Source: a virus. From it: a DNA stretch of 64,000 nucleotides. Numbering within the stretch: position 1 is the stretch's first letter; each line of letters starts with the position of its first letter. Shown here piece by piece: positions 565 to 16,091 of the stretch. Position numbers and translations under genes: made by a program. The notes below the pieces were generated by a model. The model made no database searches, was not told the DNA's origin, and worked only from the letters and a program-made list of their open reading frames with translations. Location of the stretch: IMG/VR virus record IMGVR_UViG_3300042090_003221, positions 51,812 to 115,811 of that record. One strand, 5' to 3'.

Positions 565-1011
565 GTGACCCCAACCCTGATCGAGACCGAAGCCTTTGTC
601 CGCCGCCTGTTCTTCGGCGTCGTCGACAAGGCCGGGGAGCCTTACGTCGAGCATTGCGTCCGCGTCATGGAGGGTCTGCCCGCGGCCGCGACGGACGACG
701 AGCGCCACGCCGCGCTCTTGCATGATGTCCTCGAGGACACGGACCTGACCGCGCGCGACCTGCACTTGAGCGGCTACAGCGAGCGGACGGTCTGGCTTGT
801 CCAGCGCTTGACGAAGTGGAAAGGCGCCGACTATGGCGCCTACGTCGCCGCGATCACAGCCTCGCGCGACGCCGGCCTGATCGCCATCAAGCGCGCCGAC
901 CTAAAGGATAATTCCGACCCGGCGAGGCTCGCGTTGCTGCCGGCGCGCGAGCGCGAGCGGCTCGCGGCGAAATATGCGTCGGCGCGGGAGATCTTGGAGG
1001 CATGGAAGTGA
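565..1011 (+). CDS. HD-domain small alarmone hydrolase (SAH, Mesh1/SpoT-hydrolase-like)
   Basis: Motifs DKAGEPYVEHCVRV, AALLHDVLEDT, LTK, IKRADLKDN. Confidence 0.88.
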   Translation: MTPTLIETEAFVRRLFFGVVDKAGEPYVEHCVRVMEGLPAAATDDERHAALLHDVLEDTDLTARDLHLSGYSERTVWLVQRLTKWKGADYGAYVAAITASRDAGLIAIKRADLKDNSDPARLALLPARERERLAAKYASAREILEAWK

Positions 1012-1310
1012 AAACCTCGCACCCGGTAGACGGGCGGACGCTGAGGCGCACGCGCCCGCTGCCTCATGACCCCGCGCTGCGCAAGAGGGCGAGAAAGTTC
1101 TCGGCTCTCCTCAAGGTGCTCGATATGTCCCAGACGCAAGTCGGGCGGTTCCTCGACTTGGACGGGCGCACGGTGCGCCGCTGGGCGTCCGGCGACAGGC
1201 CGATTCCGATCGCCGTCGAGATCGTCCTGACCTACATGGCGAGGAATGGCCTGACGCCGAAGGAGATCCTCGCCGCCTGCAAGATCAAGCGACAGCTGGA
1301 CGTGAGATGA
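1002..1310 (+). CDS. XRE-like HTH transcriptional regulator
   Basis: LDMSQTQVGRFLDLDGRTVRRWASGDRPIP helix-turn-helix. Confidence 0.8.
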   Translation: MEVKTSHPVDGRTLRRTRPLPHDPALRKRARKFSALLKVLDMSQTQVGRFLDLDGRTVRRWASGDRPIPIAVEIVLTYMARNGLTPKEILAACKIKRQLDVR

Positions 1311-1341: not shown

Positions 1342-1566
1342 ATGCAATTCAAGATCACGAACTACTGCGACCTCGACGGGGTGCCCGCCGTAGTCGCGAC
1401 GCTGGACACGCCGAAGGGACTCGGAACCTACTGCTTCGAATACGTCGAGGGCCGGTGGCGGGAGCCGGAAGACAACGGCGCCGACGTCATGAGCAAGTCC
1501 CGGGTCGTGACCCAGGACGTCTTCGAGCGCATGTTCCCTGACGTCGGCCTCCCGACGGCGCCGTAA
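1342..1566 (+). CDS. Small acidic protein, candidate antitoxin, convergent on the SAS gene
   Basis: Strong RBS (aaggag); stop codon 1 nt from the stop of the 1568-5194 gene. Confidence 0.65.
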   Translation: MQFKITNYCDLDGVPAVVATLDTPKGLGTYCFEYVEGRWREPEDNGADVMSKSRVVTQDVFERMFPDVGLPTAP

Positions 1567-1567
1567 A

Positions 1568-4500
1568 TCAGGCGACGTTCGGTCGGAAGATCGAATGCCA
1601 AGCCGGATCGAGCTTGTCCTGAACGCCCTTGTAAAGCGCGCTCATCTTGTTGGACAGCTCGGTCCGGGCGACCGGATCCTTTGACTTCTGCCATTCCTGA
1701 TACATATCGTGGCCGCCTTGCTTTTCCTTGGCGTCGAGCATGCCGGGCGCCCACATTTGGACCTCGCCGATCTGGCCGCTCTTGAAGCGCACCATCACCT
1801 TGCGGTCGAAATAGCCCTCTGGCGTCTTCGTCCAGCCCTCGTCGGCGACTTCGAAGTGACGCGCGAGCTGGCGCACCACCTTGTCGCTCTGGTCGGGCAT
1901 CGGGGTGTCGAAGCCGCCGCGCACCGCGTCGTTGACCTCCTGAACGGTCTTGCCGCGCTCGAGCTTCTCCATGATGCGATCGGTCTTCTTGACGCCCGGA
2001 TCCTTCCACTTGAGCCCGATGTCCTGGGCGGCCGCGGCGCAGACGTCGGCGAGCGCCTTCTGATTTTCGGGCGACATCGCGATGAGCTTGTTGACGTCCG
2101 ACGGCGCGGACTTGCGCCAGAGGTTCTTGCGCTCCGACGCCCATTCGGGGCCGTGCGCCTTCAGGCCGGGGCGGTAGGGGCGCGCCTCGGCGACCGCGGG
2201 CGCCGCAGGAGCCGCAGGAGCTGCAGGAGCTGCAGCGGGTTTTGCGGCCGCTGGCGCGGCGGGCTTGGCCGCCTGGGCGGGGGCGGGCTTTGCCGCGGCC
2301 GTTGGCGTCGGCTTCGCGGCGGGGCCGCCAGCGGGCTTCCCTACGGCTTTGGACACGTCAGCCTTCGAGGGCATGGGCTGGTAGCCGGAATGGCCGGTGA
2401 AAATCATGGGGCGGCCCTTGGCGTCTTTCGGCGGCGTGATGGCCTTTTCGCCGCCCTTGGCCTTCGACGCGGGCTTGGCCTCCGACTTGCCGCCCTTGGC
2501 CGGCTTCGCTTTCGCGCCGCCGCCGCCGGATCCGAACTGCCCGGCGTTGCCCGGCTGGCCGCGCTTGTGCTTGCCTTCGTCCCATTTGCCGGCATCGAGC
2601 GCGAGGGCGCGCAGGCCGCGGCGGAGCGGGTCGGCGTCCATCGCCGGCGCCGGGCAGTCGCGCGCAGGCGCACGCGAGGGCTTGGCGGCCGCGGCGAGCT
2701 TGCGCAGGCCGGCGGCGATAGGGCAGGCGTCCATAGCGGCGTCCTTGGCTTTGGGGCGGGCTGCAGGCTTATTTTCTATCGGCGAGACGTTGTATTCAGC
2801 GCCGCCGCGGGCGAATCCTTGCTTCTCGCGCTCGGTCGGGACGTAGGGCTTGCCGGTGCTCGCGTCGATCGGGCCTCCGCCAGATTTAGGGGAGGCCGCT
2901 CCGAATTTAGCCAGTGTTCCCTCGATCTGGCGCTGCAGGTCCGGGCTCTTGCCGTGAACGTGGCCGAGCGCTTGCTGAAGCGCGTCAATGGTCGCCTTGC
3001 GGTCGCCCTTGGCGTTAAACTCGCGCGCCGCGTTGATCGCTGTGTGAGCCGCGACCTCGTGCTGCGGCAAAGGCTTGTCGAGATCGCTCTCGGCGGGCTT
3101 GGCGGGGGAGGGGGAGGCCGCAGCGAGCTTTTCCGGATCGCCACGGCTAAGCCGATCAACAATACCGTGCATGCCGGCGTTCTTCAGCGCCTCAATCGAG
3201 CCGTGCTGCTTCAGGGCCTCGTAGTCTTTGTCGGTCGGCGCTGGCAAATTCGGCGCGCCGGTGATTTGCTGGCGGCCGAGCGACCCCTCCTTGTTCTGCA
3301 TGCGTTGGATATCGGCCCACTCGTGCCCGAAGATCTTCCCGCCGTCGTGGTGATCTTTCGGCGGCGTAGCCGGCTTACGCGCTGTGGCGGGAGCCTTGAA
3401 CTCGGCGGGCTTGGCGGCGGTGCTGCGGTTCGCGCGCGACCACTCTTGTACCGCGTCAACTTGGCTGCGGCCCTTGGCGCGTTCCTGACGGACGTAGTCT
3501 TGCACGCTCATGGACGTCGGCGAACCGCCCGCGGTAGCCTCGGGCTTGGCCGCAGGTTCCTTGGGGTCCTGCGACCCGACCGCCTGCGTCTTGCGCAGCT
3601 GGTGACCGCGCTCGCCGCCGGCGCCCTCCGGGGCGGCTTCGAAGGTGTGCTCGCCGTTCGACCACTGCGGCAACCGGCTGTGTTCGACCGGGTTGAAGCC
3701 GTTTGCCTTCATGTGCGCGTCGAGCTTGGCGAAATGGTCCTTGTCGGAGAAGGAGGCTTGCGACTTGTGGCTCTCGATCGCGCCGCCTTCGCCCGCGACC
3801 CTGCGGTAGCCGAGGCCGCCGAGCTTCAGGCCGGCGCCCTTGCCCTCAGCCGGCTTGCCCTTGGCCGACTGTGAGAACTTCGCGGCCCAGGCGACGTCTG
3901 GATTTCCGGCCGGTTCTTGAGCCGGGGCGGCGTTGCCGGACGCGCCGGCCGCCTCCTTCGGCGGGTCGACCTTCTGGACCTCCCACTTGCCGCTGCCCGA
4001 TCGCTTGTCCGCGTCGCGCTCGGCCGCGGCTTTGTTCACGCTCCAGCCGACGACGTGACCCGCCGGCTGCTCGCCACCTTGGCTGACGACGGCGTAAAGC
4101 GGCTGAGGCTTCGCGCCGCGCTCGGCTTGGCCTGCCCAGAACTTGCGCATCAGGTCGTTGGGTTTAGCCGGCACGCCAGTGCTGGCGCTGGCGGGCTTGG
4201 CGGCTTTGGCGGCGCCCTTGGCCAGGGCGGGGTCGTCGCTGCCGCGCATCTGCTCGTCGAGCAAGGCCTTCTTGTTCTTCAGCGTGGCGTAGCTCTCGCC
4301 GCCGAGCTTTTCGATCTCGGCGTTGGCCTTCGCGTAGTCGCTGAAGTGCTTGTCGCCCTTCGCGCGCGCGGCCCGCGTCGGGCTTCTGATCGCGGCCTCA
4401 TAGGCGCTGTAGGCCTCATGGGCACGGCGCGTTGCGTTTGCGAGATCCTTATCCACGTTGCGCCCGCCCGCGCGCATGGCCTCTTTCTCGGCGTTGCGGG

Positions 4501-5194
4501 CGGCGACGAACTCCTGTTCCAGGGCCTTCATTTCCGGCCCGTTCATCTTCTCGTCGTGGCGCTTGCCGTTCGCGCGCATCGCCTCTTCGTGCATCTTCTC
4601 GGCGGCGGCGACGTCTTTCGTCCGCGTCATGTGCTCGTGCGCTTTGGCGTAAGCCGCCTTGTCGGCCTCGTCGCGCTCCTTGAAGTGCTTGGCGGAGAGC
4701 TCGGAGATCGCGTTCTTGATCTCGTGCGAGGGGCGGGGCGCCTTCGGCTTCGGCTTGTCGCTCAGATGCTCGGAGCCCGGGCCGGAGAACGCGGCGTGCG
4801 CGCTCGTGCGCGAGTTCGCGCGGCCCTTGCCGGCGCCGCGCGCCTCGCCGATCGGCTTCCCGTTGAACTTGCCGCCCATGCCGCCCTTGATCTCGCCGTT
4901 CTCGCCGATCAGGACCGGTGTCCCGGGGCCGTTCGCGTTCGGGTGGACGGTGATCCACTTGTCGGCATCCATCGCGAGCCGCGCGAGGCCGCGCCGCACC
5001 GCTGTATCAAGCGCCATCGTTCCGTCGCCCGCCATCTCTTCCCCCGCGTCATCGTTGTCCGGATAATCGTCCCAGCCGCCGGTCGCGGTGAGCATCTTGT
5101 CGGTGTCGCCGGCGTCCGGGTTGCTGAACTCTTCCTCGGAGATCTCCGGCAGCTCGTAATTCGGGTCTTTCGGGACCGGCATGAGCTTACGCAT
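1568..5194 (-). CDS. Large modular head-cargo-like protein with a C-terminal RelA/SpoT synthetase (toxSAS-like) domain
   Basis: C-terminal VKKTDRIMEK / NDAVR / GYFD / GEVQ / AK..GHDMY; N-terminal LAMDADKWITVH module; internal WDEGKHKRGQPGNAGQF. Start moved to ATG 5194, coupled to the upstream stop. Confidence 0.8.
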   Translation of the reverse strand: MRKLMPVPKDPNYELPEISEEEFSNPDAGDTDKMLTATGGWDDYPDNDDAGEEMAGDGTMALDTAVRRGLARLAMDADKWITVHPNANGPGTPVLIGENGEIKGGMGGKFNGKPIGEARGAGKGRANSRTSAHAAFSGPGSEHLSDKPKPKAPRPSHEIKNAISELSAKHFKERDEADKAAYAKAHEHMTRTKDVAAAEKMHEEAMRANGKRHDEKMNGPEMKALEQEFVAARNAEKEAMRAGGRNVDKDLANATRRAHEAYSAYEAAIRSPTRAARAKGDKHFSDYAKANAEIEKLGGESYATLKNKKALLDEQMRGSDDPALAKGAAKAAKPASASTGVPAKPNDLMRKFWAGQAERGAKPQPLYAVVSQGGEQPAGHVVGWSVNKAAAERDADKRSGSGKWEVQKVDPPKEAAGASGNAAPAQEPAGNPDVAWAAKFSQSAKGKPAEGKGAGLKLGGLGYRRVAGEGGAIESHKSQASFSDKDHFAKLDAHMKANGFNPVEHSRLPQWSNGEHTFEAAPEGAGGERGHQLRKTQAVGSQDPKEPAAKPEATAGGSPTSMSVQDYVRQERAKGRSQVDAVQEWSRANRSTAAKPAEFKAPATARKPATPPKDHHDGGKIFGHEWADIQRMQNKEGSLGRQQITGAPNLPAPTDKDYEALKQHGSIEALKNAGMHGIVDRLSRGDPEKLAAASPSPAKPAESDLDKPLPQHEVAAHTAINAAREFNAKGDRKATIDALQQALGHVHGKSPDLQRQIEGTLAKFGAASPKSGGGPIDASTGKPYVPTEREKQGFARGGAEYNVSPIENKPAARPKAKDAAMDACPIAAGLRKLAAAAKPSRAPARDCPAPAMDADPLRRGLRALALDAGKWDEGKHKRGQPGNAGQFGSGGGGAKAKPAKGGKSEAKPASKAKGGEKAITPPKDAKGRPMIFTGHSGYQPMPSKADVSKAVGKPAGGPAAKPTPTAAAKPAPAQAAKPAAPAAAKPAAAPAAPAAPAAPAVAEARPYRPGLKAHGPEWASERKNLWRKSAPSDVNKLIAMSPENQKALADVCAAAAQDIGLKWKDPGVKKTDRIMEKLERGKTVQEVNDAVRGGFDTPMPDQSDKVVRQLARHFEVADEGWTKTPEGYFDRKVMVRFKSGQIGEVQMWAPGMLDAKEKQGGHDMYQEWQKSKDPVARTELSNKMSALYKGVQDKLDPAWHSIFRPNVA

Positions 5195-6800
5195 GGTCGC
5201 GCCCCTTGTGATCGAACAGCCAGTCGACATGATCTTCGAGCTCTTTCGGCAACGTGCCGCGCTTGTATTCCGGCGACGTTACCAGCGCGGCGAGCTCCGC
5301 GTCGGTTTCTTTGATGTTCGTCGTCGCGTATTCACTGATATTCTCGCGGATCCACTTCTGCCGCGTCGTGTAGTCGATATTCAGCTTTTGCAGCACGCCC
5401 ATAAGCCGGTCGGCTGACCGAACGCTCGATCGTAGGCCAAGGGCGTGCGCGAGTTCATGAACAATAGTCGCGCGCGCTTGGTCTTTGCTCGATGCGCTGA
5501 CGGACCAATTCGCCTTTCCCGCAGCGATGCGCGCGTCGTTGGCTTCGGCTTGCCCTTGATTGAATTCGCCCCGCTTCGACGGGCTGATCGAAAAATACCC
5601 GACATCACCCTTGCCGGGCTCATTCCTGTACCATGCATGGCCGCAGGACTTGCCCGTCGAGCCCGCCGCCAAGACGACATGAGCCTTCGACAGCGCCTTC
5701 TTGACGTCGAAGCCGTCGGCTTCCAACTTCGTCAGCGCGTCATTCACTTGCGAGACGATCTCCCGCATGCCCTTCGCCGAGGCGCCGGACTGCGTGATAT
5801 CGATCGGGGTGTGCCCCTTTATGCGGTAGCCCGGGTCGCTTCGCTTGGCCTCAATGATCTTATTGTATTGCTCACGCTTGGCCTTGCCATCTTCGCCGTC
5901 CTTATCCGGGTGTTTATACCACTCGGAGAACGCCTTCTTGTCGTCGCCGTGCTTAACGCCGTTGATGAAACCGAGGCCGAAGCGCTCTTTCATGTAGTCG
6001 TGAATTTCTTTTGGCGTATCTTTGGCAAACGATTTTCCGCCCGTCGATTCAGCCTTTTTCTTAGTCTTGGGCTGATCCTTTTTGGCTTCTTTTTCGAGGC
6101 GCTTAATTTCGCTTTTGTGTTTATTGTAACCAAAAGCGTGGTTGTTCATTTCATTTCGGCGGGTCTTCGCCCAATCCTTCCACGACAAATAAGCCGCATG
6201 GTGCGCGGCCATCGCCTTGCGGTGTTCGTCGAGCGTTTTGGCGTTCTCGCTGAGTTTGTTGGCCTCATCCGACAGATGGGCCTTCTTGACCCTCTCGAAC
6301 TCGTACGCTTCCTTGCTGCCGTAGGGGTGCGGGTTCTTGGCGCGCGGATCGAACGGCGGCGCTTCCGGCGGCTTCGGCGCTTCGGCGGGCTTCGGAAGCG
6401 CGAGCCGCTTCTCCGGTCCAGGGCCGAGCCAAATCGCCGGCGAGTGCTGGCTGGTCGAGCCGGACTTCGCCGCGCTCTTGCTGCTCGGATTGACGAACTT
6501 GCCGTTGAGCTTGCCGCCGGCGCCGCCGATGATCTGCCCTGCGCCGTTGATCAGCGCGGGCTGACCCTTGTTGTCGGGGCCGTTGGGATGGATCGTGATC
6601 CAGTGCTCGGCGTCCATCGCGAGCCCGCGCCAGCCCGCGGCGTCGTGCGCCGCGCCGCCGAAGCCCGTGAGATCGACGATCTCGGACGTCCCGCGGAAGA
6701 CGACGCCGGCGGCGATCTTCGGCGCGGCGTCGGCGGCAAGGCGCGGCTTTCCCAGCGTAGCGGCGAAAGATCGCCAACCGCTTGCGGATGCGTCGGTCAT
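5187..6800 (-). CDS. Modular protein: shared leader and WITIH module plus a C-terminal zincin metallopeptidase
   Basis: TIVHELAHALG ... ISEYATTNIKETDAE; N-terminal GWRSFAA..KPRLAAD, LAMDAEHWITIH. Confidence 0.8.
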   Translation of the reverse strand: MTDASASGWRSFAATLGKPRLAADAAPKIAAGVVFRGTSEIVDLTGFGGAAHDAAGWRGLAMDAEHWITIHPNGPDNKGQPALINGAGQIIGGAGGKLNGKFVNPSSKSAAKSGSTSQHSPAIWLGPGPEKRLALPKPAEAPKPPEAPPFDPRAKNPHPYGSKEAYEFERVKKAHLSDEANKLSENAKTLDEHRKAMAAHHAAYLSWKDWAKTRRNEMNNHAFGYNKHKSEIKRLEKEAKKDQPKTKKKAESTGGKSFAKDTPKEIHDYMKERFGLGFINGVKHGDDKKAFSEWYKHPDKDGEDGKAKREQYNKIIEAKRSDPGYRIKGHTPIDITQSGASAKGMREIVSQVNDALTKLEADGFDVKKALSKAHVVLAAGSTGKSCGHAWYRNEPGKGDVGYFSISPSKRGEFNQGQAEANDARIAAGKANWSVSASSKDQARATIVHELAHALGLRSSVRSADRLMGVLQKLNIDYTTRQKWIRENISEYATTNIKETDAELAALVTSPEYKRGTLPKELEDHVDWLFDHKGRDHA

Positions 6801-6918
6801 GTGTTGAGCTTCCCCTCGAATGATCAAAACTTCGGCCGATGCGTGGCAGAGGCGAAAAACGCCTTTGACTGCCGAGAGTCTGTGTGTGATGCTCCAATCA
6901 ACCAGGGAGCGTTATGTG

Positions 6919-7137
6919 ATGAAATATACCAAACAAGAATTGGACGAAGCAGCTATCTACGACTTAGCGATCGATGCCCGCACTTCGCGGGAGCAGGCAG
7001 AGAACGGCCCGTATTTTCCAGAAATCGGCATTACCCGCGAAAGCTGCATTGCCTACGCTGAAAAGTGCGAGCGCTCCATTGAGAGATACAAAGACGGTGG
7101 GGCGCACGCGTTTGTCTTGGGCAAAGAATCGCTTTAG
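6919..7137 (+). CDS. Small antisense protein, candidate immunity protein
   Basis: RBS agggag and TTGACT about 50 nt upstream; stop overlaps the stop of the 7134-7904 peptidase. Confidence 0.6.
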   Translation: MKYTKQELDEAAIYDLAIDARTSREQAENGPYFPEIGITRESCIAYAEKCERSIERYKDGGAHAFVLGKESL

Positions 7138-7904
7138 GTCTTCCGGGCCGTCTTAATCAGGTCCGACCACATGGCGTCAGCTAATTTCTGCGCGTGGTCG
7201 GAAAACATGCCGGCAGAGGATTTCTTGGTTTCATACGCGACGAAGCTTTCGGCCATGAACTCGAAAATGTTCTCCGCGCCATACGCTGAGGTCTGATTGT
7301 TAACAATGTTCAACGGACCTTTCCCACTATAACCCAGGTGCCCGTAGACGATTTTCCAGAATTTCTTGAAGCCTATCTTGTCTTCTAGTTTCGACGCGAG
7401 CAGGTGCCCGAATTCATGCGTCATGACGCCGCCGACGGAAGGGTCATTCATCATTCCGTCCCATTCCTTGGCGTATTTTTCTAGGCCTTCTTTTGTCCAT
7501 GCTTTAGGACTCAGATTTATGTTGTTTCCGGAGCGATAAGCCAGCGCTCCCTCGCGTTCGTTTTCTTCTACCTTCGGTGACCCCGCCTCCGGATATTTTT
7601 TCGAAAGCTCGGCGACCCTGGAGTGCGCGACGGTCTTATGGTCATTCTTTCCCCGGACCTCGGAAATGTTTTTGCCCGTAAATTTTCCGCCTAGACCGCC
7701 TTTGACTTCGCCGTTAGCGCCGAGCAATACAGGGGATCCGGGGCCTTCTTTGTTGCCGTGAACTGTGATCCACTTCTCGCCAGCATCCATTGCCAGGGCG
7801 CGCCATCCTGCCCGCGCCGCCCTCACCTTGCCGTCCTGCGCAAGGCGCGGCTTCGCTACAGCGGCGGCAAAGCTTCGCCAACCGCTCGCAAGTGCGTCGG
7901 GCAT
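7134..7904 (-). CDS. Modular protein: shared leader and WITVH module plus a zincin metallopeptidase
   Basis: VMTHEFGHLL ... SAYGAENIFEFMAESF; N-terminal GWRSFAA..KPRLAQD, LAMDAGEKWITVH; C-terminal part visibly AT-richer. Confidence 0.8.
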   Translation of the reverse strand: MPDALASGWRSFAAAVAKPRLAQDGKVRAARAGWRALAMDAGEKWITVHGNKEGPGSPVLLGANGEVKGGLGGKFTGKNISEVRGKNDHKTVAHSRVAELSKKYPEAGSPKVEENEREGALAYRSGNNINLSPKAWTKEGLEKYAKEWDGMMNDPSVGGVMTHEFGHLLASKLEDKIGFKKFWKIVYGHLGYSGKGPLNIVNNQTSAYGAENIFEFMAESFVAYETKKSSAGMFSDHAQKLADAMWSDLIKTARKT

Positions 7905-8573: not shown

Positions 8574-9347
8574 TTAAAACGGGATAATCGGCTCTCCGAC
8601 GCATCGGCAATTGAAGATCTGGCCGGGCAGGGAGTGATGGTCCGGGGGATCGCAGAGCGGCGGGTTGAGGTATTCAAACGCTTTGCCGTTCAGCCTGCGG
8701 TGACCGGGGCGGACATCGGAGTCGCCGATCGTGCGCCAGATGAAGTGGGTGCATCCGATCGACTGCGCCCGGGTCTGCGTCAGCACGCTCCCGGTGCGGG
8801 CAACCTCGGTGCGCGCGATCAGCGTCGCCCTCGAGCGCGAGACCTCGCCGGTGCGCATGATCTCGGCGATGTAGGCCGCGGGTCGCTTCCCCTCGGTGAT
8901 GCCGGCGAGCGTGACCTTGCGGACGCGCTCCGCGGCCTCGCGCGGAATCGAGGTGATGAGCGAGGTCTGCTCGTTGAGCAGCGCCTGCATGACGCCGCCG
9001 ACGGGGGTGTCGTCGATCTCGCGCCGCAGGTTGCGGCCGATGCGCGCCGCGGCCTCCTTCCAGCCCTGGAGGTCGCGCGAAGACATCTCGGTGATCATGC
9101 GCGTCGTCACGGAGCGCGCCCAGGGATCAAGGATCTTGGCGTATTGCTCGAGCTGGATCTGGACCGCCTCATAGACCGCGGGGTCGGTGAGGTCGAACCC
9201 CGCGATGAGGTCTTGAACGACCTGCGCCACCTTGCGGAGCTGGCGCGCGTACTTGCCCTCGACAACGCGGGCGCGCTTGTACGCCTTGCCGGCCGGAGTG
9301 TCTCCGGCGCGGTCGAAGGCGTGGTCGAGGCGGACGAGGGCGTTCAC
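8574..9347 (-). CDS. Phage head morphogenesis protein (MuF / SPP1 gp7 family)
   Basis: RATLIARTE, WRTIGDSDVRPGH, PGQIFNCRC; GTG start overlaps the upstream TGA. Confidence 0.92.
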   Translation of the reverse strand: MNALVRLDHAFDRAGDTPAGKAYKRARVVEGKYARQLRKVAQVVQDLIAGFDLTDPAVYEAVQIQLEQYAKILDPWARSVTTRMITEMSSRDLQGWKEAAARIGRNLRREIDDTPVGGVMQALLNEQTSLITSIPREAAERVRKVTLAGITEGKRPAAYIAEIMRTGEVSRSRATLIARTEVARTGSVLTQTRAQSIGCTHFIWRTIGDSDVRPGHRRLNGKAFEYLNPPLCDPPDHHSLPGQIFNCRCVGEPIIPF

Positions 9348-9538
9348 GAGACGGCCCGCATCCGCAGCTCGCGCCGGCGTCTTGCGATGGCAGCCTTGAC
9401 CTCCTCGACGCCGAGAACCGACGGAAAGCGAGCGCTCATGCAATGACCCGTCACGTCGTCGAGATACGTTGCTGTCGTGCCGTATTGATCGCCGTAGACG
9501 TAGGGACGAACGATAATCATTGAAATAAAGTCGTTCAT
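9344..9538 (-). CDS. Small hypothetical protein
   Basis: ORF coupled to the MuF start (GTGA). Confidence 0.45.
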   Translation of the reverse strand: MNDFISMIIVRPYVYGDQYGTTATYLDDVTGHCMSARFPSVLGVEEVKAAIARRRRELRMRAVS

Positions 9539-10039: not shown

Positions 10040-11824
10040 TCAATTGTTCAAGAGATTGGGACCGCAAGATAAGGCCACGCGAGAAATTAGGCCATTGTAG
10101 GGGTTGTTGCCCTGTGCGTTGCCGATTGTGATTGGCGAAGCAAATGCGGGGAGGGCCGCTGCAACGGGAGCTGATAAGACACCATTGAAGCGGGACGTGA
10201 GCGTCGTTGTCGTGATGGAAGACGCAAACCTGCCAGAAACTCCCACGGACTGCGCCGCTTGCACTGTAGTGGCAAGGGTTGTCCCATTGTAGGACCACGC
10301 CGAGGGAATGCCGATAGTTCCATAACGTCGGTGCAGATAGTAACCAGAGCCAGCGGGCCAGTATAGCGCGACTTGATCCTGTGCGGTGCTGCCGGTGATT
10401 GGTTCATAGGGCGTCGAAACCGTCAGCATCGAACGCGAGGTAGACGCGCCGCAATTCGGGGCCGGGAGGTTGATTATCGTAAGCGCCCGTGTCACTGCGC
10501 CTGAACTCGTCAGTATCGGACCCGTGGCGAAACCCAGCGCCGAGTTGTCGGTTGGCGTCAGGTTGACGGTCGGGTTCGTCGTGAATAGCGCGCCTGTTAT
10601 CCCAATCGAGCCGACGTTCTGCGAGTTGTTGACAGTCCAACTAAGTCCGCTGCCGCCAGTGATGACGGTTCCGGCCGAAATTCCAGTACCAGTTAGTGTC
10701 TGCCCGATGACGATTGAGCCCAGTGAAACCGACGAGACGGTAAGCGTAGTTCCGGAAATGGCGCCTTGGAAATATGAGTCAAACAGGTACGCGCCAGCGG
10801 GGGGCAGGGAAGAGTAAGAACCTCCAACCGGGACAGAATTGACGCTTGCGACGCCGCCAGAAATGCTGACGTTGACCTGGGCGGTTGTAGTGCTCGTACC
10901 GAACGCAACGTACATATTTCTCGGCGTTGTGCCCGTTCCGCCAGCGCCGCCACTCGCAATCGCCGCGCTCGCGACGGTGGCGGGCAGGTTGGGGTTAAGC
11001 TCGATCTGCGGTTGCCAGAAACGTACCGTGACATCGACTGTAGCGGTCGATGAGTTTAAATTCACAACGAAAGCTGGATAAACAAAAGCCGTCGCGGACA
11101 GCAAGGGAGTCGCTGAAACGACCATCAATTGTCTATTAGCAAGAGCGGCTACCGACGTCGAAGACGTCTTGTTAGAGACAAACGATCCACCACTGTTGAC
11201 GAAGTCAACATTGTAACCTATTGAATTTATATTTGCGACATTCGGTGATGCGATAATCTGCGCATAAACGGACTGACTCCAAGTCTGTCCGTAACTCGCA
11301 GTGATCTGCGTTGACGCCTCGAATGATAAGCCAGGAAACTGATACGACGCCGTGCCGTAGAAGCGCACGTCGACGTAGTTCATGCCATAGCTGACGCCGG
11401 TCGAGACGATCTGCGTCGATAATCCCGGGGCGTAGAGAGACCAATACTGCGGCGGCGTACCCGGGGTTCCAACAACCGCACCCTGCATTGTTGAATTGCG
11501 AATCCCGTTCGTCCGCGCCTCCCACGCCCACAAGCCACAGCCCAGCGTGATCGCGGGAGTATTGGCGGGGAACGGGCCGTAGAGTTGGGCGTTGCAGACT
11601 TCATATTCCTGCGAGGCGCGCGAGACGTTAAGCTGGCTGGGCGTCAGGCCCCAATAGCGGGAGTGAGCGAAGTCCATGTCCGGGTTCGCGGCGGGCAAGA
11701 TCCAGCCGGGCGGATTCCCGATCACCGGGAAGATATTTTTCGAGACCGCGGCCGCGGAGCCGGCGCTGAGCAGCGCGCAAACCGCCGCGAATAGGCTGAG
11801 AGCCCTGATCAAACGCGAGGTCAT
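10040..11824 (-). CDS. Beta-rich fiber/spike-like protein with a signal-peptide-like N-terminus
   Basis: MTSRLIRALSLFAAVCALLSAGSAAA; S/T/G-rich; WEARTN..RNS motif seen in head spike/fiber proteins; LamG-like end. Confidence 0.6.
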   Translation of the reverse strand: MTSRLIRALSLFAAVCALLSAGSAAAVSKNIFPVIGNPPGWILPAANPDMDFAHSRYWGLTPSQLNVSRASQEYEVCNAQLYGPFPANTPAITLGCGLWAWEARTNGIRNSTMQGAVVGTPGTPPQYWSLYAPGLSTQIVSTGVSYGMNYVDVRFYGTASYQFPGLSFEASTQITASYGQTWSQSVYAQIIASPNVANINSIGYNVDFVNSGGSFVSNKTSSTSVAALANRQLMVVSATPLLSATAFVYPAFVVNLNSSTATVDVTVRFWQPQIELNPNLPATVASAAIASGGAGGTGTTPRNMYVAFGTSTTTAQVNVSISGGVASVNSVPVGGSYSSLPPAGAYLFDSYFQGAISGTTLTVSSVSLGSIVIGQTLTGTGISAGTVITGGSGLSWTVNNSQNVGSIGITGALFTTNPTVNLTPTDNSALGFATGPILTSSGAVTRALTIINLPAPNCGASTSRSMLTVSTPYEPITGSTAQDQVALYWPAGSGYYLHRRYGTIGIPSAWSYNGTTLATTVQAAQSVGVSGRFASSITTTTLTSRFNGVLSAPVAAALPAFASPITIGNAQGNNPYNGLISRVALSCGPNLLNN

Positions 11825-11832
11825 GCTCGATC

Positions 11833-12423
11833 TCAGTTCTGCGGGCCGGATAGCGACAAGGACAGCGTCGCGGAGGCGCCGGGAACGTCGGCGGCGACAG
11901 TTTGCAGGCAGGCGTAGAGGTTCTGCGTCGACGTGCCGTCCGCGTTCTTGTAGTCCCACGACAGATTCGTGAGGGGCGCGTAGGTTTTGGCGTCGCCGGT
12001 TGTGATCTGGGGGGCGGCAAACGAAATCGAGACCGGGCCAGCGCCGATGAGATAGGCGTCGTCGGTTGTGCTCGACGCGAAAGCTGCGTTGTCGGCGCAG
12101 GTCGTGTTGGTTGGGTTTTTGTTCCACACCCGCACGACATAGGTCTGCGTCGAGCCCCAAGAGGTCCAGGCGAGCAGCGACGTGATTATGCCTGAGCCTC
12201 CGTTGCTCCGCCCGAGCGGAATGGTGATCAGTCCGCCGACGGACACGCCCGCGGCGTGCGACGCCGCGGCAGGAGAGGTCGTCGTATGCTGTGGGCCGCT
12301 ATCATAGCCGCCCACCGCTCCGAGGCTGAGCCCAGGCAGCTGCGGCGGGTCAGCATACGCCGGGATGGTGGCAAGCATAGACGCCGCCAACAAGGCCGTC
12401 GACGCGAGGAAAAGCCTGTTCAT
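11833..12423 (-). CDS. Exported-looking beta-rich protein
   Basis: Signal-peptide-like MNRLFLASTALLAASMLATIPAYA; RBS ggag. Confidence 0.65.
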   Translation of the reverse strand: MNRLFLASTALLAASMLATIPAYADPPQLPGLSLGAVGGYDSGPQHTTTSPAAASHAAGVSVGGLITIPLGRSNGGSGIITSLLAWTSWGSTQTYVVRVWNKNPTNTTCADNAAFASSTTDDAYLIGAGPVSISFAAPQITTGDAKTYAPLTNLSWDYKNADGTSTQNLYACLQTVAADVPGASATLSLSLSGPQN

Positions 12424-12460: not shown

Positions 12461-14467
12461 CTACGTGGAGGGCTTGAGCGGCTTGGTCACTTCGGGCGAT
12501 GCCGGCGGCGAGCCCTTGGCTGCAGGCTTCGGCGCCGGCTTCGGCAGCTTCGGCGGCTTCAGCGCGGCGAGCTGGTGCGCATGAGGCGCGGGGGCCGCCG
12601 GCTTCGGGGCCGCAGGAGCTGCGGGAGCACCGCCCTCGGCCGGGAGGTCACCACCCAGATCGCCCGGCTTTCCGGGGGATCCGCCTGGATTTGCGCCACC
12701 CAGAGCACCGCCCTGTTCCGTCCCGCCCGGGGCGCCGGGAGCGCCCGGCGGGCCGCCCATACCCGGCGGCATGCCCGGGGGACCGTCGCCCTGCGGCTCC
12801 GGCGGATCCTCGTCGGCCTTCGCGATGTCGTCGTCGGTTATCTCGATTCCGACGCCGGTGACCGCGGACGAGGTCCGGATCATCTGCAGCGCCTTCTTCG
12901 GCCCGATCAACTGCGCGTCGAGCATCTTGGTCACGGCGTCGACGACCGTGCCCGCCATCGTCGCCTTTTCAGCATGCGTCATCGGGTAGGGGACGCTCGC
13001 GTCGGAGTTAAGCGCGGCATAGGGGCCGTCGGTGTCGGCGGTGACGCGGTTGCGCTCCTCTTGACCCGAGATCGCGCGCGACTCCACCAGCGTCTTGCCT
13101 GTGTCCGCGTCGGCCTTGCGCAGGTCCGCCTTCTCCTGTTCGGTAAGCTCGATCAGGGGCACGAACTTGAAGATGATGTCCTCGTCGACGTCCCCGAACT
13201 CGTCGAGCTGGATCACGCGAACGACGGTCTCAAGATTCGGCCGCAGGGTCGCTTCCTGATAGGAGAGAACACGATCCTCCCAGCAACGCATTTCCTGATC
13301 GCCCGACGCGTTGAGGCCGCTCGGCGAAATGCCCGTGAGCTTGACCAGCGGGATCTGCGTGATCGACGCCATGTGCTCTTGCGCCTGGGACTGGATGCCC
13401 TCGAGGCCGGAAATGGGCGCGGAGACGTTGGCGAACGCCTCCTTGTCCTTGTCGATCGCCAAAACGCCGCTGTTCGTTTTCGTGGCGTTGAAGACGTCGA
13501 CGCGGTTGAAGAAGGCCTCGCCGCCGCCGCCCGCGAGGATATCGGCCATGTTCGTGGAGAGCACGAACGTCGAGAACGCCTTGACGATCGAGGTGACGCC
13601 CTGACGGACGTCCAGCCAGTTGTCGACGTAGGGGCGCGCCATCTGCGTGGCGCTGAGGCCCGCGAACGCATAGGCGGGCTTCAGAATGTCGGGGACCTCG
13701 CGCGCCACAAAGGTCAGGAACCGGCTCGCATGCACTTGCTGGCCGAGCACGAACCACTGCGAGGGCTTATAGAAGTCGGCCGCCAGCGGGTTGCTGGAAT
13801 TGTAGCTCTGGGGGAAACACCAGACGGGCTCCACGACCCTGATATCGCGCAGCGTGCCCTGTACGATCTTGGCTTTGGACACGTCGGAGTTGCCGCGGCC
13901 GATGTCCTCGATGAGCTCCGGCCCTTGGACGTCGCCGAAATCCATGAACCAGTGACCGCGGCCGAAGAGGCAGTCGTGCTCGAGAACCTCGCGCGCCTTG
14001 GACTGCAGGTTGAGGCGTGTGATCCTCTCCTCGATTTTCTTGATCCGCTCCTTCTTGTCCTTCCCACCGGCGCTTGAGAATTCGATCCAGTTGCGGCTCG
14101 CTTCGGTCGCGACCGTTTCGGCGATGAGGCGGTACTCGCCGCGCTGCGCGAGGATCGAAAGCAGCGGGAACCCCAGGAACTGCTGCCCTTCCTCGGAGCC
14201 CCAGCCGCCGCTATAGGCCCAGGACTCGACCTCTTGAGCGCTCGCCGCGTCGTCGAGCGCCATCTCGGGCGTCCCGGCCGGCACGACGCCGGGGCGGGGC
14301 TTGTAGGCCTCGAACACCCTGCCTCGCGCCGCGGACGCGCCGCGCCTGCTCTTGGCTCGCGCCGCCGTCGCTGCGGAGACAGCGAACTTCTCCGGCGCCG
14401 GCATCAGGGCAAGCGCGGCCTTCGCCGTCTTGCCGCCCGAGCGCTTGACTTTGGTCTTTTTACCCAC
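12461..14467 (-). CDS. Portal protein (DUF1073-type) with a Pro/Gly/Ala-rich tail
   Basis: Immediately after TerL; FLGFPLLSILAQRGEYR, IPLVKLTGISPSGLNASG. Confidence 0.88.
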   Translation of the reverse strand: MGKKTKVKRSGGKTAKAALALMPAPEKFAVSAATAARAKSRRGASAARGRVFEAYKPRPGVVPAGTPEMALDDAASAQEVESWAYSGGWGSEEGQQFLGFPLLSILAQRGEYRLIAETVATEASRNWIEFSSAGGKDKKERIKKIEERITRLNLQSKAREVLEHDCLFGRGHWFMDFGDVQGPELIEDIGRGNSDVSKAKIVQGTLRDIRVVEPVWCFPQSYNSSNPLAADFYKPSQWFVLGQQVHASRFLTFVAREVPDILKPAYAFAGLSATQMARPYVDNWLDVRQGVTSIVKAFSTFVLSTNMADILAGGGGEAFFNRVDVFNATKTNSGVLAIDKDKEAFANVSAPISGLEGIQSQAQEHMASITQIPLVKLTGISPSGLNASGDQEMRCWEDRVLSYQEATLRPNLETVVRVIQLDEFGDVDEDIIFKFVPLIELTEQEKADLRKADADTGKTLVESRAISGQEERNRVTADTDGPYAALNSDASVPYPMTHAEKATMAGTVVDAVTKMLDAQLIGPKKALQMIRTSSAVTGVGIEITDDDIAKADEDPPEPQGDGPPGMPPGMGGPPGAPGAPGGTEQGGALGGANPGGSPGKPGDLGGDLPAEGGAPAAPAAPKPAAPAPHAHQLAALKPPKLPKPAPKPAAKGSPPASPEVTKPLKPST

Positions 14468-16091
14468 GTCGCATCCCTCGCGGCGGCACGCCGGCCCGGC
14501 GCATTGCCTCTTGACTGATAATCATTGGTCGATTGACGCCTGACATTCGGATCATCACGGCGTCGGCAAGGTTCGGCGACTTTGTGCCGTCAGGCGCCTT
14601 GTTGATGACGATCTTGCCGACGGTGTTTGTTTTGAACGTCGGTTGCGATAGCTCGGCGACGAGCTTGGCACGGTGCTTGAGCCCTAACGGAATCGAGATC
14701 AGCTCATCAGGGCTGGCCTTGACGCCCTCAGTCACGGCGCGGAATGTTTTCTGAAAGCGGGTCCGCAAGGACCACCACTTTTGCGCCTTGAGGTTCAGGA
14801 AGTAGTCTTCGTTTTTGCGGCCCCTGACGTCCTCGGACGATGGCTCATCGACGCCAGCGGAGCCGCGGAACATTTGCACGCTGATGGTGCGAGCGTTGCG
14901 CTTAGCCCGCTCTTCATTGATCACGCGTGCGTCGCCGCGCACCCCAGCGCCTAGACCGTCGCCGTCGTAGGTGAAGCCGTCGTAGCCGTGCTCCTCGCAG
15001 AAGCCAAATACCTTGATGACGGTCCCGAATATGTCGTCGCCCTTGCCGGACCACTCCTCGAGCGCCTCGAGCACGACGCCGTGCGCGCCGCAGTACGCGT
15101 TGAGATCCTTGCCCTCGTCGGCGACATCGAGCGCGCCGTAGCGCGAACCGGTCGGCTTGAAGTCGAGCACGACATGGGCGTCGATCGCGGCCTGGACCCA
15201 GGCGGAGGGAATGAGGACGCCTGCGACCGAAGACGCGAAATCGATGTCGATTTCCTGCGCGATCGTGACGGGATCGAGGTCGACGAGCTGCTTCTGATAC
15301 CAGACCTCGTCTTTGCGAGGATCGTCACGCCAGTGGAAGCGGAAGACCCTCTCCTCGGGCCATTCGACGACCTTGCGGTGGAACGGGTTCCCGAGGCCGT
15401 TCGCGGTGCTGATATCGATGCGGCATGTCGTGGTTTGCGATAGCGCGGCGTCGACGGTTTCGGGCCGCTCGAGGTACGCGGCCTCGTCAACGAAATAGAT
15501 CGAGGCGCGGTCGCCGCGGCCGATGTTGTCGCCGGCCTCGCCGGTCATGATCGACTCGGTGTCGCGGAACATGATCCGCATGTACGGAGCGTCGTTCTTG
15601 GGGTCGAAGTTGCCGCGGAACTCCGGCGGCAGGAGCTCGACGAACTTTCGCGCCTTCCAGAACAGGGACTTCGGGGCGCCGAGCTTGTCGACGTATTCCT
15701 CTTTGCGTGACCCCCAGCCGATCGCGACGCCCTCGTTGAACAGGCAGAGCGTGCAGGACAGCGCGATGGCGACCCAGGACGCGCCGGACTCACGCGACTT
15801 CGGCGACACCCCGGGCTCGCAGGCGCGCCAGCGCGCTAGGATCCAGTTCACGAGCTCGCGCTGGCGCGGGAACAAAATAAAAGGAACGATCGGCGGGAGC
15901 CCAAGCGCGATGTTGCGCGGGTCGAAAGTGCAGCCCCAATCCGAGATGAAGTCGGCGGGGTTATCTTTGTAGTGCGCCCTCAGCGCCGGGAGGAGCTCAG
16001 GTTTGGCGCGGATCTCTCTATAAGTCTTGGTTCTTTGTGCGAAAACCCGGGGGTAGTCCGGATTCTTGTGGTCGAACCAATCAAGGTGCAT
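14460..16091 (-). CDS. terL: Terminase large subunit
   Basis: KSRESGASW Walker A-like, YFVDEAA Walker B, ISTANG, LDVADEGKD and SPNLADA nuclease motifs. Confidence 0.95.
   Translation of the reverse strand: MHLDWFDHKNPDYPRVFAQRTKTYREIRAKPELLPALRAHYKDNPADFISDWGCTFDPRNIALGLPPIVPFILFPRQRELVNWILARWRACEPGVSPKSRESGASWVAIALSCTLCLFNEGVAIGWGSRKEEYVDKLGAPKSLFWKARKFVELLPPEFRGNFDPKNDAPYMRIMFRDTESIMTGEAGDNIGRGDRASIYFVDEAAYLERPETVDAALSQTTTCRIDISTANGLGNPFHRKVVEWPEERVFRFHWRDDPRKDEVWYQKQLVDLDPVTIAQEIDIDFASSVAGVLIPSAWVQAAIDAHVVLDFKPTGSRYGALDVADEGKDLNAYCGAHGVVLEALEEWSGKGDDIFGTVIKVFGFCEEHGYDGFTYDGDGLGAGVRGDARVINEERAKRNARTISVQMFRGSAGVDEPSSEDVRGRKNEDYFLNLKAQKWWSLRTRFQKTFRAVTEGVKASPDELISIPLGLKHRAKLVAELSQPTFKTNTVGKIVINKAPDGTKSPNLADAVMIRMSGVNRPMIISQEAMRRAGVPPRGMRRG

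Follow-up and report, generated by a model that had tools for sequence, protein, structure and literature searches.

A small conserved module ahead of swappable enzymes and toxins in phage head-gene clusters, a possible reusable head-cargo handle

The sequence examined here, bases 51812-115811 of a 115.8-kb IMG/VR provirus (hereafter the window, 64,000 nucleotides), contains three consecutive genes, designated A, B and C, whose products share one small module and end in different domains. The module is about 55 residues long (about 45-60) and stands ahead of a predicted RelA/SpoT-type synthetase in A, a predicted zincin metallopeptidase in B and a second HExxH domain in C. Because hundreds of protein clusters carry the same module ahead of freely swapped enzymes and toxins, we lean, if only slightly, towards reading it as a reusable handle for head cargo, used where other phages join the cargo covalently to MuF, portal or protease. 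The three genes and the parts of them that carry this argument are listed below, with positions counted from the first letter of the window.

1568..5230, minus strand: gene A, 1220 amino acids as its longest open reading frame (ORF)
4823..4996, minus strand: module copy in A, residues 79-136, matching phrog_25904 at E=2.5e-9
2534..2605, minus strand: second motif in A, residues 876-899, reading LALDAGKW-DEGKHKRGQPGNAGQF
1571..2215, minus strand: predicted RelA/SpoT-type synthetase domain of A, Tas1/Apk-like, residues ~1006-1220
5187..6827, minus strand: gene B, 546 amino acids, with SGWRSFAA leader, module, Lys-rich middle and predicted HExxH zincin domain
6471..6623, minus strand: module copy in B, residues 69-119
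5190..5837, minus strand: predicted zincin metallopeptidase domain of B, residues 331-546, with the motif HELAH
7134..7904, minus strand: gene C, 256 amino acids, with SGWRSFAA leader, module and helical HEFGH domain
7632..7799, minus strand: module copy in C, residues 36-91

Across the copies of A, B and C, 21 columns are invariant, including LAMDA, WIT.H.N, G.P.L and GG.GGK..GK, and the core of the module reads A-x-D-A-D-K-WITVHPNG-x3-KG-x-P-x-LI-x4-G-x-I-x-GGMGGKFNGK. Each copy scores at E about 1e-35 against a three-row profile, and the whole record holds exactly three copies. These E-values, together with the invariant W, T, P and N, led us to reject chance similarity or low complexity as an explanation. 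A recent tandem duplication was also rejected, since the DNA of the three copies is just ~69% identical; this level of identity and the many synonymous differences point to old paralogues under selection. Beyond the module, B and C have in common the leader SGWRSFAA..KPRLA.D, which is also found in an unrelated 124-residue database protein, and in A the order of parts is an acidic leader, the module, a long Lys/Ala-rich middle, the second motif, a Gly/Ala/Pro linker and the Tas1-like synthetase. The preliminary description of this DNA, made from the letters alone, had already pointed to a module shared by three genes, a leader shared by two, C-termini that differ, and a second module in the largest gene. 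All of this was borne out: the three ORFs are present, the C-termini are a zincin-fold model in B, an HEFGH motif alone in C and a RelA/SpoT-type synthetase in A, and the second module corresponds to WDEGKHKRGQPGNAGQF at residues 883-899 of A. The same description had considered the peptidase parts richer in AT than the leaders, which is correct for B, where the GC content at third codon positions (GC3) falls from 0.86 in leader and module to 0.71-0.76 in the cargo, and incorrect for C, where GC3 is low all along, module included (0.65 and 0.64). Gene A matches the phage throughout.

AlphaFold modelled C with confidence over the module alone, at a predicted local distance difference test (pLDDT) score of 91-95, and gave it three short strands (residues 44-48, 57-61 and 66-69) followed by a Gly-rich loop. 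The predicted fold of the module is thus a three-stranded mini-sheet plus a glycine loop. Foldseek with the whole-C model gave nothing meaningful, this model being good over the module alone, which is too small for the method.

To our profile of the three local copies alone, scored against 1.84 billion representative proteins, 901 protein clusters matched at E<=1e-3 and 322 at E<=1e-10. The analyses of architecture cover the best 150 of the 901 matches; 131 of these were scanned with Pfam, and downstream parts were clustered for 110 proteins. Across 156 module copies hardly any change is seen at W, I, T, V, P, N, G and GG.GGK. Neither Pfam nor NCBIfam has a model for the module, whether whole proteins or isolated modules were searched (up to E=10), and PHROGs covers it only through phrog_25904, a family without known function, and through phrog_62, whose N-terminus it forms and whose members, labelled 'DNA helicase', have about 1900 residues. 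The cluster names of 10 relatives read 'hypothetical protein' throughout, a look-up in the ESM Atlas gave no usable lead, and a word-index homologue search with the module region of C, of too low sensitivity, returned C itself alone. A weak Pfam match to Phage_cement over the module of one relative (P0004) was judged spurious and this identity was rejected; the real cement protein of that phage (L004:8056-8562) is unlike the module, and no cement protein appeared when the module profile was compared with the PDB.

The module lies within the first 100 residues in 127 of the 150 representatives (85%), and 12 of the 150 carry 2-4 copies. What follows the module varies widely: the downstream parts of the 110 proteins form 42 unrelated BLAST clusters, a result obtained by the very check that the preliminary description had proposed, namely a profile of the module and an inventory of the C-terminal domains attached to it. 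The Pfam domains that accompany the module among the 131 scanned proteins are ADPrib_exo_Tox/ART (13), DUF2213 (11), DUF5710 (9), Gln_amidase (a glutamine deamidase, 6) and Phage_portal_3 (5), and more rarely ddrB-ParB, LPD1, LPD3, LPD5, NUDIX and DUF3560 (2 each) and ATLF and RelA_SpoT (1 each); further cargo consists of SNF2 helicase proteins of 1400-2000 amino acids. ART, Gln_amidase, ddrB-ParB, LPD, NUDIX, ATLF and SNF2 helicase domains are characteristic of proteins that phages pack into their heads. Five of the 131 have the architecture portal-module-X, and the 11 with DUF2213 join the module to a prohead protease of the family that the present phage also uses. These joins take the forms protease-module(-X), module-protease-scaffold and NUDIX-module-protease-scaffold, and in one protease (P0107) the module is near the C-terminal end, with just 43 residues after it. 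A polyvalent protein with InPase, LPD3 and LPD1 domains (P0011) bears three modules. Phage_Mu_F was absent from all 131, which fits a tag used in place of a MuF fusion. The proposal of the preliminary description that the effectors are not fused to MuF and use a separate, reusable tag therefore agrees with this absence, with the swapping of cargo and with the head context described below, and has to be amended in one respect: the module is not strictly N-terminal, since it also stands behind portal or protease domains and occurs several times inside polyvalent proteins.

The genes that surround A, B and C in the window are the following.

14460..16091, minus strand: large terminase gene (TerL), phrog_2 at 4e-27
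12461..14467, minus strand: portal protein gene, phrog_146 at 6e-99
10040-12160, minus strand: 706-residue ORF between portal and MuF, without PHROG match
8574..9443, minus strand: MuF head-morphogenesis gene, 289 amino acids, Pfam Phage_Mu_F at 1.5e-17 and phrog_324 at 1e-57
between MuF and gene C, minus strand: 75-residue ORF
6820-7137, plus strand: 105-residue ORF that exactly fills the gap between the start of B and the stop of C
1342..1566, plus strand: 74-residue ORF that ends 1 nucleotide from the stop of A, without family match
1002-1310, plus strand: small helix-turn-helix protein, in the block converging on gene A
565..1011, plus strand: Aph1-like HD hydrolase, convergent with gene A, phrog_990 at 1e-33

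The MuF gene encodes the MuF domain only, without a toxin extension. Left of the examined stretch there is a plus-strand block of ~11 kb, after which the minus-strand head genes resume with a DUF2213-type prohead protease, a scaffold, a cement protein, the major capsid protein, a neck protein and a tail sheath, so that the order here is TerL, portal, MuF, C, B, A, and then the protease, scaffold, cement and capsid genes. This gene order on both sides of the plus-strand block places A, B and C inside the head-morphogenesis block of a Mu-like myovirus prophage, between MuF and the protease. The 706-residue ORF has an internal stretch that resembles a signal peptide, long regions rich in Ser, Thr, Gly and Ala, and a lower GC content (0.50-0.60), and it looks like an insertion into the head operon.

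The same surroundings recur in other phages. A scan of IMG/VR gave 291 confirmed module loci. Pfam MuF was found in 30 of 39 records, in all 30 on the same strand as the module gene and 0-6.8 kb from it, and of the remaining nine, three (L010, L034 and L038) proved to have a MuF-like gene when purpose-built profiles were used; DUF2213 was present in 39 of 41 records, and all 12 near-complete records had it. Commonly the genes run portal, MuF, protease-scaffold, capsid, neck and then one or two module genes, and in other phages the module gene lies upstream of the portal. A scan with one genome per species added a taxonomic view: its 66 module loci come from Bacillota, many Pseudomonadota, Planctomycetota, Bacteroidota, Cyanobacteriota, Actinomycetota, Spirochaetota, Myxococcota and other hosts. 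Pasteurellaceae prophages have the order portal, MuF, module gene, protease and capsid, the same as here, and Enterobacteriaceae carry module and protease as one fused protein. Module genes repeatedly stand in tandem arrays of 2-4, and gut Bacillota have arrays of 3-4. Among 50,697 cultured phage records, five contained the module (tblastn); in Morganella phage Mecenats66 the module protein, ORF61, is located between the annotated minor head protein and the protease.

A second head type, defined by a phrog_1028 protease and a phrog_752 capsid, was annotated at two loci, L101 and L103, and about thirty similar loci with large proteins turned up besides these. There the module is carried by SNF2-helicase proteins of about 1500 and 1960 amino acids, N-terminal in L101 and at about residue 620 in L103; the helicase gene is directly upstream of the protease, and in L103 it is preceded by a weakly matched minor-head gene. 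In L101, which is a Nitrosomonas prophage, the module helicase adjoins an Ulx-like gene and a DarB-like methylase-helicase. The latter (L101:1258-7617, plus strand) has 2119 residues and no module, and it lies beside the Ulx-like gene and the 1511-residue module helicase, which means that the Dar-like proteins of one phage are not all tagged.

The clearest view of cargo exchange came from three contigs (L013, L049 and L051) with capsid proteins that are 100% identical. At the same position these contigs have module genes of 297, 351 and 599 residues, whose first 90 residues agree at 70-99% identity; beyond that point they have nothing in common. Cargo is exchanged as cassettes right behind the module, and the fall of GC3 at the same point in B is in keeping with this. 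The preliminary description would have been contradicted by homologues with constant C-termini away from head genes; the homologues found here do carry variable C-termini and do cluster with head genes.

The residues just ahead of the module are informative as well. In phages of the DUF2213 type, those before the module W read hydrophobic-A-(Q/M)-D-(A/D/E)-x-K, and the capsid proteins of these phages have an invariant A-x-D at residues 40-70, where the conserved fold begins (A66, D68). Sites of the A-x-D type in the present phage number 3 in the scaffold, 4 in A, 2 in B and 2 in C. In A, two of them precede the second motif, a third precedes the module, and the fourth, in the leader, lies 19 residues upstream of that one. 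Together these four proteins account for 11 of 19 such sites and for 9% of the residues examined. In a simple count of A.D[AD], the capsid protein and the protease-scaffold were the sole outliers (observed-to-expected ratios of 3.8 and 1.7), and the module genes of other phages were unenriched (1.1), because their site reads A-Q-D-E/D-A. The second head type has hydrophobic-L-K-(A/S) instead, about 8-10 residues before the module. A hydrophobic-(L/I/V)-K-(A/S) sequence also forms the protease N-terminus in L101, L103 and L082 (Mecenats66), where it reads MLKAT or MLKAS, and the K-(A/S) motif is repeated several times in an acidic scaffold-like protein (LVKS, LIKS, MIKS), which makes it a candidate cleavage motif of phrog_1028 proteases. 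The upstream motif thus switches with the head type and the module stays constant. These motifs are probably cut sites of the prohead protease, and a cut just ahead of the module would leave a mature cargo that begins with it.

Such sites also suit a different explanation, in which a leader or fusion brings the protein in and the module is a docking site (exosite) for the prohead protease that marks where mature fragments start. The head-type-specific motif is always directly ahead of the module, many lineages have the module next to the protease gene or joined to the protease itself, 39 of 41 records also contain DUF2213, and the cutting of portal-module-X, protease-module-X and multi-module polyvalent proteins would free module-X units. 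However, one module that serves two unrelated protease types and two upstream motifs would be odd for an enzyme-specific exosite, a near-invariant fold of 45 residues goes far beyond the needs of known head-protease sites, and P0107, with its 43 residues after the module, has little to release. We therefore consider it unlikely that marking fragments for the protease is what the module is for.

In the capsid proteins of DUF2213-type phages (L004:6992-8122 on the minus strand, L007-L080) we observed, at residues 40-70, the invariant sequence A-x-D-A-A-L-x-T-x-P-N-x-G-x-P, which resembles the start of the module, A-x-D-A-x-K-W-I-T-V-H-P-N-G; in the closest form, A-Q-D-A-A-x-x-T-x-P-N-x-G-x-P of the capsid stands against A-Q-D-A-A-K-W-I-T-V-H-P-N-G of the module. 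This likeness could reflect mimicry of the capsid N-arm, or merely a shared cut site. An extended form of the handle reading would make the module, by analogy with encapsulin loading peptides, a universal cargo-docking domain for HK97-fold capsids, across phyla and at least two head-protease types, with its first strand imitating the N-terminal arm of the capsid protein. We hold this extension to be doubtful. If it were true, cargo would be co-assembled and cut like a capsid subunit, and ~60 added residues would load any protein into many unrelated phages.

A module that becomes the new N-terminus of every cargo after the putative cut might also act later, at exit or after entry: as an end that is threaded through portal and tail, as a contact to the DNA end or a membrane, or as a ligand of a conserved host component. 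Its conservation from Bacillota to Pseudomonadota, Planctomycetota and Cyanobacteriota fits a partner that is constant across host and capsid type, and the loop, rich in Lys and Gly, could make contact with nucleic acid. Against this, the module matches none of the nucleic-acid-binding or membrane families, and the prohead protease, which need not leave the head, bears it in several lineages; a role at these late steps is, in our view, decidedly unlikely.

The cargo of A was assigned with a profile built from its last 219 residues and six homologues, which matched the Tas1 toxin domain (PDB 6ox6) at E=1.3e-6. Residues D100, R103, G138-Y139, E155, Q157, H173 and Y176, at synthetase motif positions, are invariant in the seven homologues. 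Pfam RelA_SpoT did not match the end of A, and single-sequence phmmer searches of the PDB with the ends of A and B returned nothing, so that Tas1 was found by the profile alone. On this profile evidence the C-terminus of A is predicted to be a (p)ppApp synthetase of the Tas1/Apk type. The middle of A has no match in Pfam, NCBIfam or PHROGs. In the stretch 5182-5230 the longest ORF of A overlaps the end of B, by 44 nucleotides. Its real start is probably Met17 (MPVPKD) at 5182, 4 nucleotides past the stop of B, a choice preferred because the MPVPKD leader start resembles the start of a database protein (P0014).

Between the middle and the synthetase of A stands the second motif, K-W-D-E-G-K-H-K-R-G-x5-G-Q-F, with LALDA and PAMDA sites of its own ahead of it, the PAMDA site being 14 residues upstream. 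Directly ahead of the Tas1-like domain, an H(P/K)R..G(Q/K)F motif also stands in the homologues P0155, P0156 and P0152, the last with an additional NUDIX domain. The motif is present, as HPR..G(R/K)F, in seven large proteins among the 150 module-bearing representatives; two of the four such large proteins that were Pfam-scanned show domains of the polyvalent type (InPase and LPD1/LPD3). The second motif may be a second kind of start-of-fragment handle.

Facing A, the gene at 565..1011 matches PDB 7smg, '(p)ppApp hydrolase', over its full length at E=3.6e-14, and it probably provides immunity against the synthetase of A. From its position, the 74-residue ORF at 1342..1566 is a candidate for a second immunity protein of the binding type, by analogy with the IapK and Aph1 pairs of Apk2 toxins (PMC12226406).

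The end of B was modelled by AlphaFold with a pLDDT of 82.6 and a predicted template modelling (pTM) score of 0.83. VIA-align superimposed this model on the catalytic domain of anthrax lethal factor (1yqy) with Z 9.2 and a root-mean-square deviation of 3.9 over 162 residues, the Pro-Pro endopeptidases (PPEPs) followed with Z 8.1 for PPEP-3 and Z 7.8 for PPEP-2, and zincins fill most of the top 50 rows. Pfam Reprolysin_3 gave a weak match to B (0.003), and Foldseek alone on the end of B was not significant. As judged from the model, the C-terminus of B is a zincin of the lethal-factor/PPEP kind; the same peptidase domain also follows a portal-module part in L075/L076 and P0026. In C the HEFGH motif is present, the model has a pLDDT of 35-78 there and found no fold match, and C is assigned as a second putative HExxH protein by motif alone. 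Instead of acting as effectors, the two peptidases may serve to process other proteins. For B, this would be the processing of cargo that Iyer et al. proposed for the peptidases of polyvalent proteins (PMC5512222). The 105-residue ORF between B and C has a low GC content of about 0.53, no family match and perhaps an internal real start at MKYTKQ; its product could inhibit, or give immunity against, one of the two HExxH proteins.

The presence of an immunity gene raises the question of whether A, B and C are virion cargo at all. MuF polymorphic toxins include Apk2, a MuF fused to a (p)ppApp synthetase and accompanied by IapK and Aph1 immunity (PMC12226406, PMC10083569). The role of these MuF-linked Apk2 toxins is unsettled and immunity genes go with them as with competition toxins (PMC12226406), A has its Aph1-like immunity gene, and C-terminal swapping resembles that of secreted polymorphic toxins; the proteins might then be late cytoplasmic or lysis-released enzymes and toxins, and the module an oligomerisation or trafficking domain. 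But the portal and prohead-protease fusions put the module inside procapsids by construction, the genes lie within head operons in two head types, and the cargo includes DarB-like helicases and Alt-like ADP-ribosyltransferases (ARTs), whose known relatives are head-packaged (PMC5512222, PMC9024508). We regard a role unrelated to the capsid as very improbable.

Returning to the handle reading, A, B and C would be late head-cluster cargo, each composed of a variable leader, a cut site for the head protease, the conserved module and a swappable cargo. The proteins would be produced alongside the head genes and enter the procapsid, which is formed from portal, MuF, prohead protease/scaffold and capsid protein, with the module as the common handle by which unrelated proteins are taken into, or held inside, this procapsid. 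The prohead protease would then cut the leader off at the motif just before the module, A would probably be cut again before the second motif, and the mature cargo, module first, would stay in the head and exit with the DNA. The lysogen would be shielded from the synthetase of A by the facing Aph1-like hydrolase. Packaging, cleavage, the step served by the module and ejection are here inferred from context. A four-chain complex prediction with prohead protease, capsid protein, MuF and module scored 0.00, which gives no verdict, as this job is unlike those on which the method was calibrated.

Several points weigh against the handle reading. The putative cut sites are read from motif recurrence alone. 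If the leader is cut off ahead of the module, as in T4, the leader could be the loading signal and the module could serve another step. A fusion that already includes a scaffold or portal would have no need of a tag for loading. The module has no detectable relative among solved structures, by sequence (profile against the PDB) or by fold. No Pfam LPD model matches it, and it could be an LPD domain, among the 40 that Iyer et al. 2017 defined, that lies outside Pfam. Finally, the fetched loci are phylogenetically clumped, many of them coming from one metagenome, so that the counts of 30 of 30 for MuF and 39 of 41 for DUF2213 overstate independence.

Compared with known systems, A, B and C share with the MuF toxins a prophage head-gene context, a constant N-terminal part and swappable C-terminal toxins, and A, like Apk2 with Aph1, pairs a (p)ppApp-synthetase-type domain with an Aph1-type hydrolase. 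They differ in that Pfam finds no MuF domain in A, B or C, MuF being a separate toxin-less gene here, and in that the constant part is a different and much smaller domain; unlike in Apk2, the immunity gene is on the opposite strand in a separate block. The likeness to the polyvalent proteins, as set out by Iyer et al. 2017 (PMC5512222), extends to the cargo (ART, ddrB-ParB, LPD1/3/5, InPase, SNF2 helicase, zincin peptidase and RelA/SpoT) and to the head-gene neighbourhoods, and true polyvalent proteins contain the module 2-4 times. Unlike in polyvalent proteins, the activities here seem to be split over single-cargo genes with one common tag: one effector domain each was recognised in B and C, and one in A besides 700 residues without match. 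Effectors fused to MuF, portal or capsid protease, and free ARTs beside head genes, are described by Iyer et al. 2017 and in a survey of NAD-ADPr (PMC5512222, PMC9503650). A shared N-terminal tag is not described in the main text of the former (PMC5512222), nor a shared tag in the consulted passages of the latter (PMC9503650). In the literature consulted on polyvalent and MuF proteins, capsid targeting, DarB, Mecenats66, PHB04, DUF2213 and Pam3 we found no description of the module.

By analogy, the nearest experimentally proven counterparts of the module are the N-terminal capsid-targeting signals of T4 (internal proteins IPI-III and Alt) and of P1 (the first 30 residues of DarB), which suffice to load foreign proteins (PMC9024508). 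They too are N-terminal addresses on otherwise unrelated head-internal proteins, DarB-like helicases bear the module at the same end, and the T4 signal is removed by the prohead protease much as the leader would be here. Unlike these short, lineage-specific peptides, the module is a conserved domain, predicted to be folded, that is found in many phyla and two head types and that would remain on the mature protein. The hidden Markov model of the module did not match P1 DarB, DdrB, DarA, Ulx or DdrA (best E=0.28). Encapsulin cargo-loading peptides are short conserved Gly-rich tags that steer diverse enzymes into an HK97-fold shell, are mostly C-terminal and have 10-30 residues. The module resembles them as a conserved Gly-rich tag on diverse enzymes, and shell-binding on its part is putative. 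What is new is the unnamed tag domain; capsid targeting and polyvalent proteins are known themes.

To our knowledge, the way in which tailed phages select proteins for packing and injection has been worked out in just a few models (T4, P1 and N4), where the signals are short and lineage-specific. If the module is a head-cargo handle, injected effectors of uncultured phages and prophages, among them toxins, anti-restriction helicases and ADP-ribosyltransferases, could be predicted genome-wide, and the exchange of effectors as cassettes would be explained. The module might also serve as a portable tag by which proteins are brought into phage heads, and it offers a way to approach the cleavage specificity of DUF2213 prohead proteases, which are uncharacterised.

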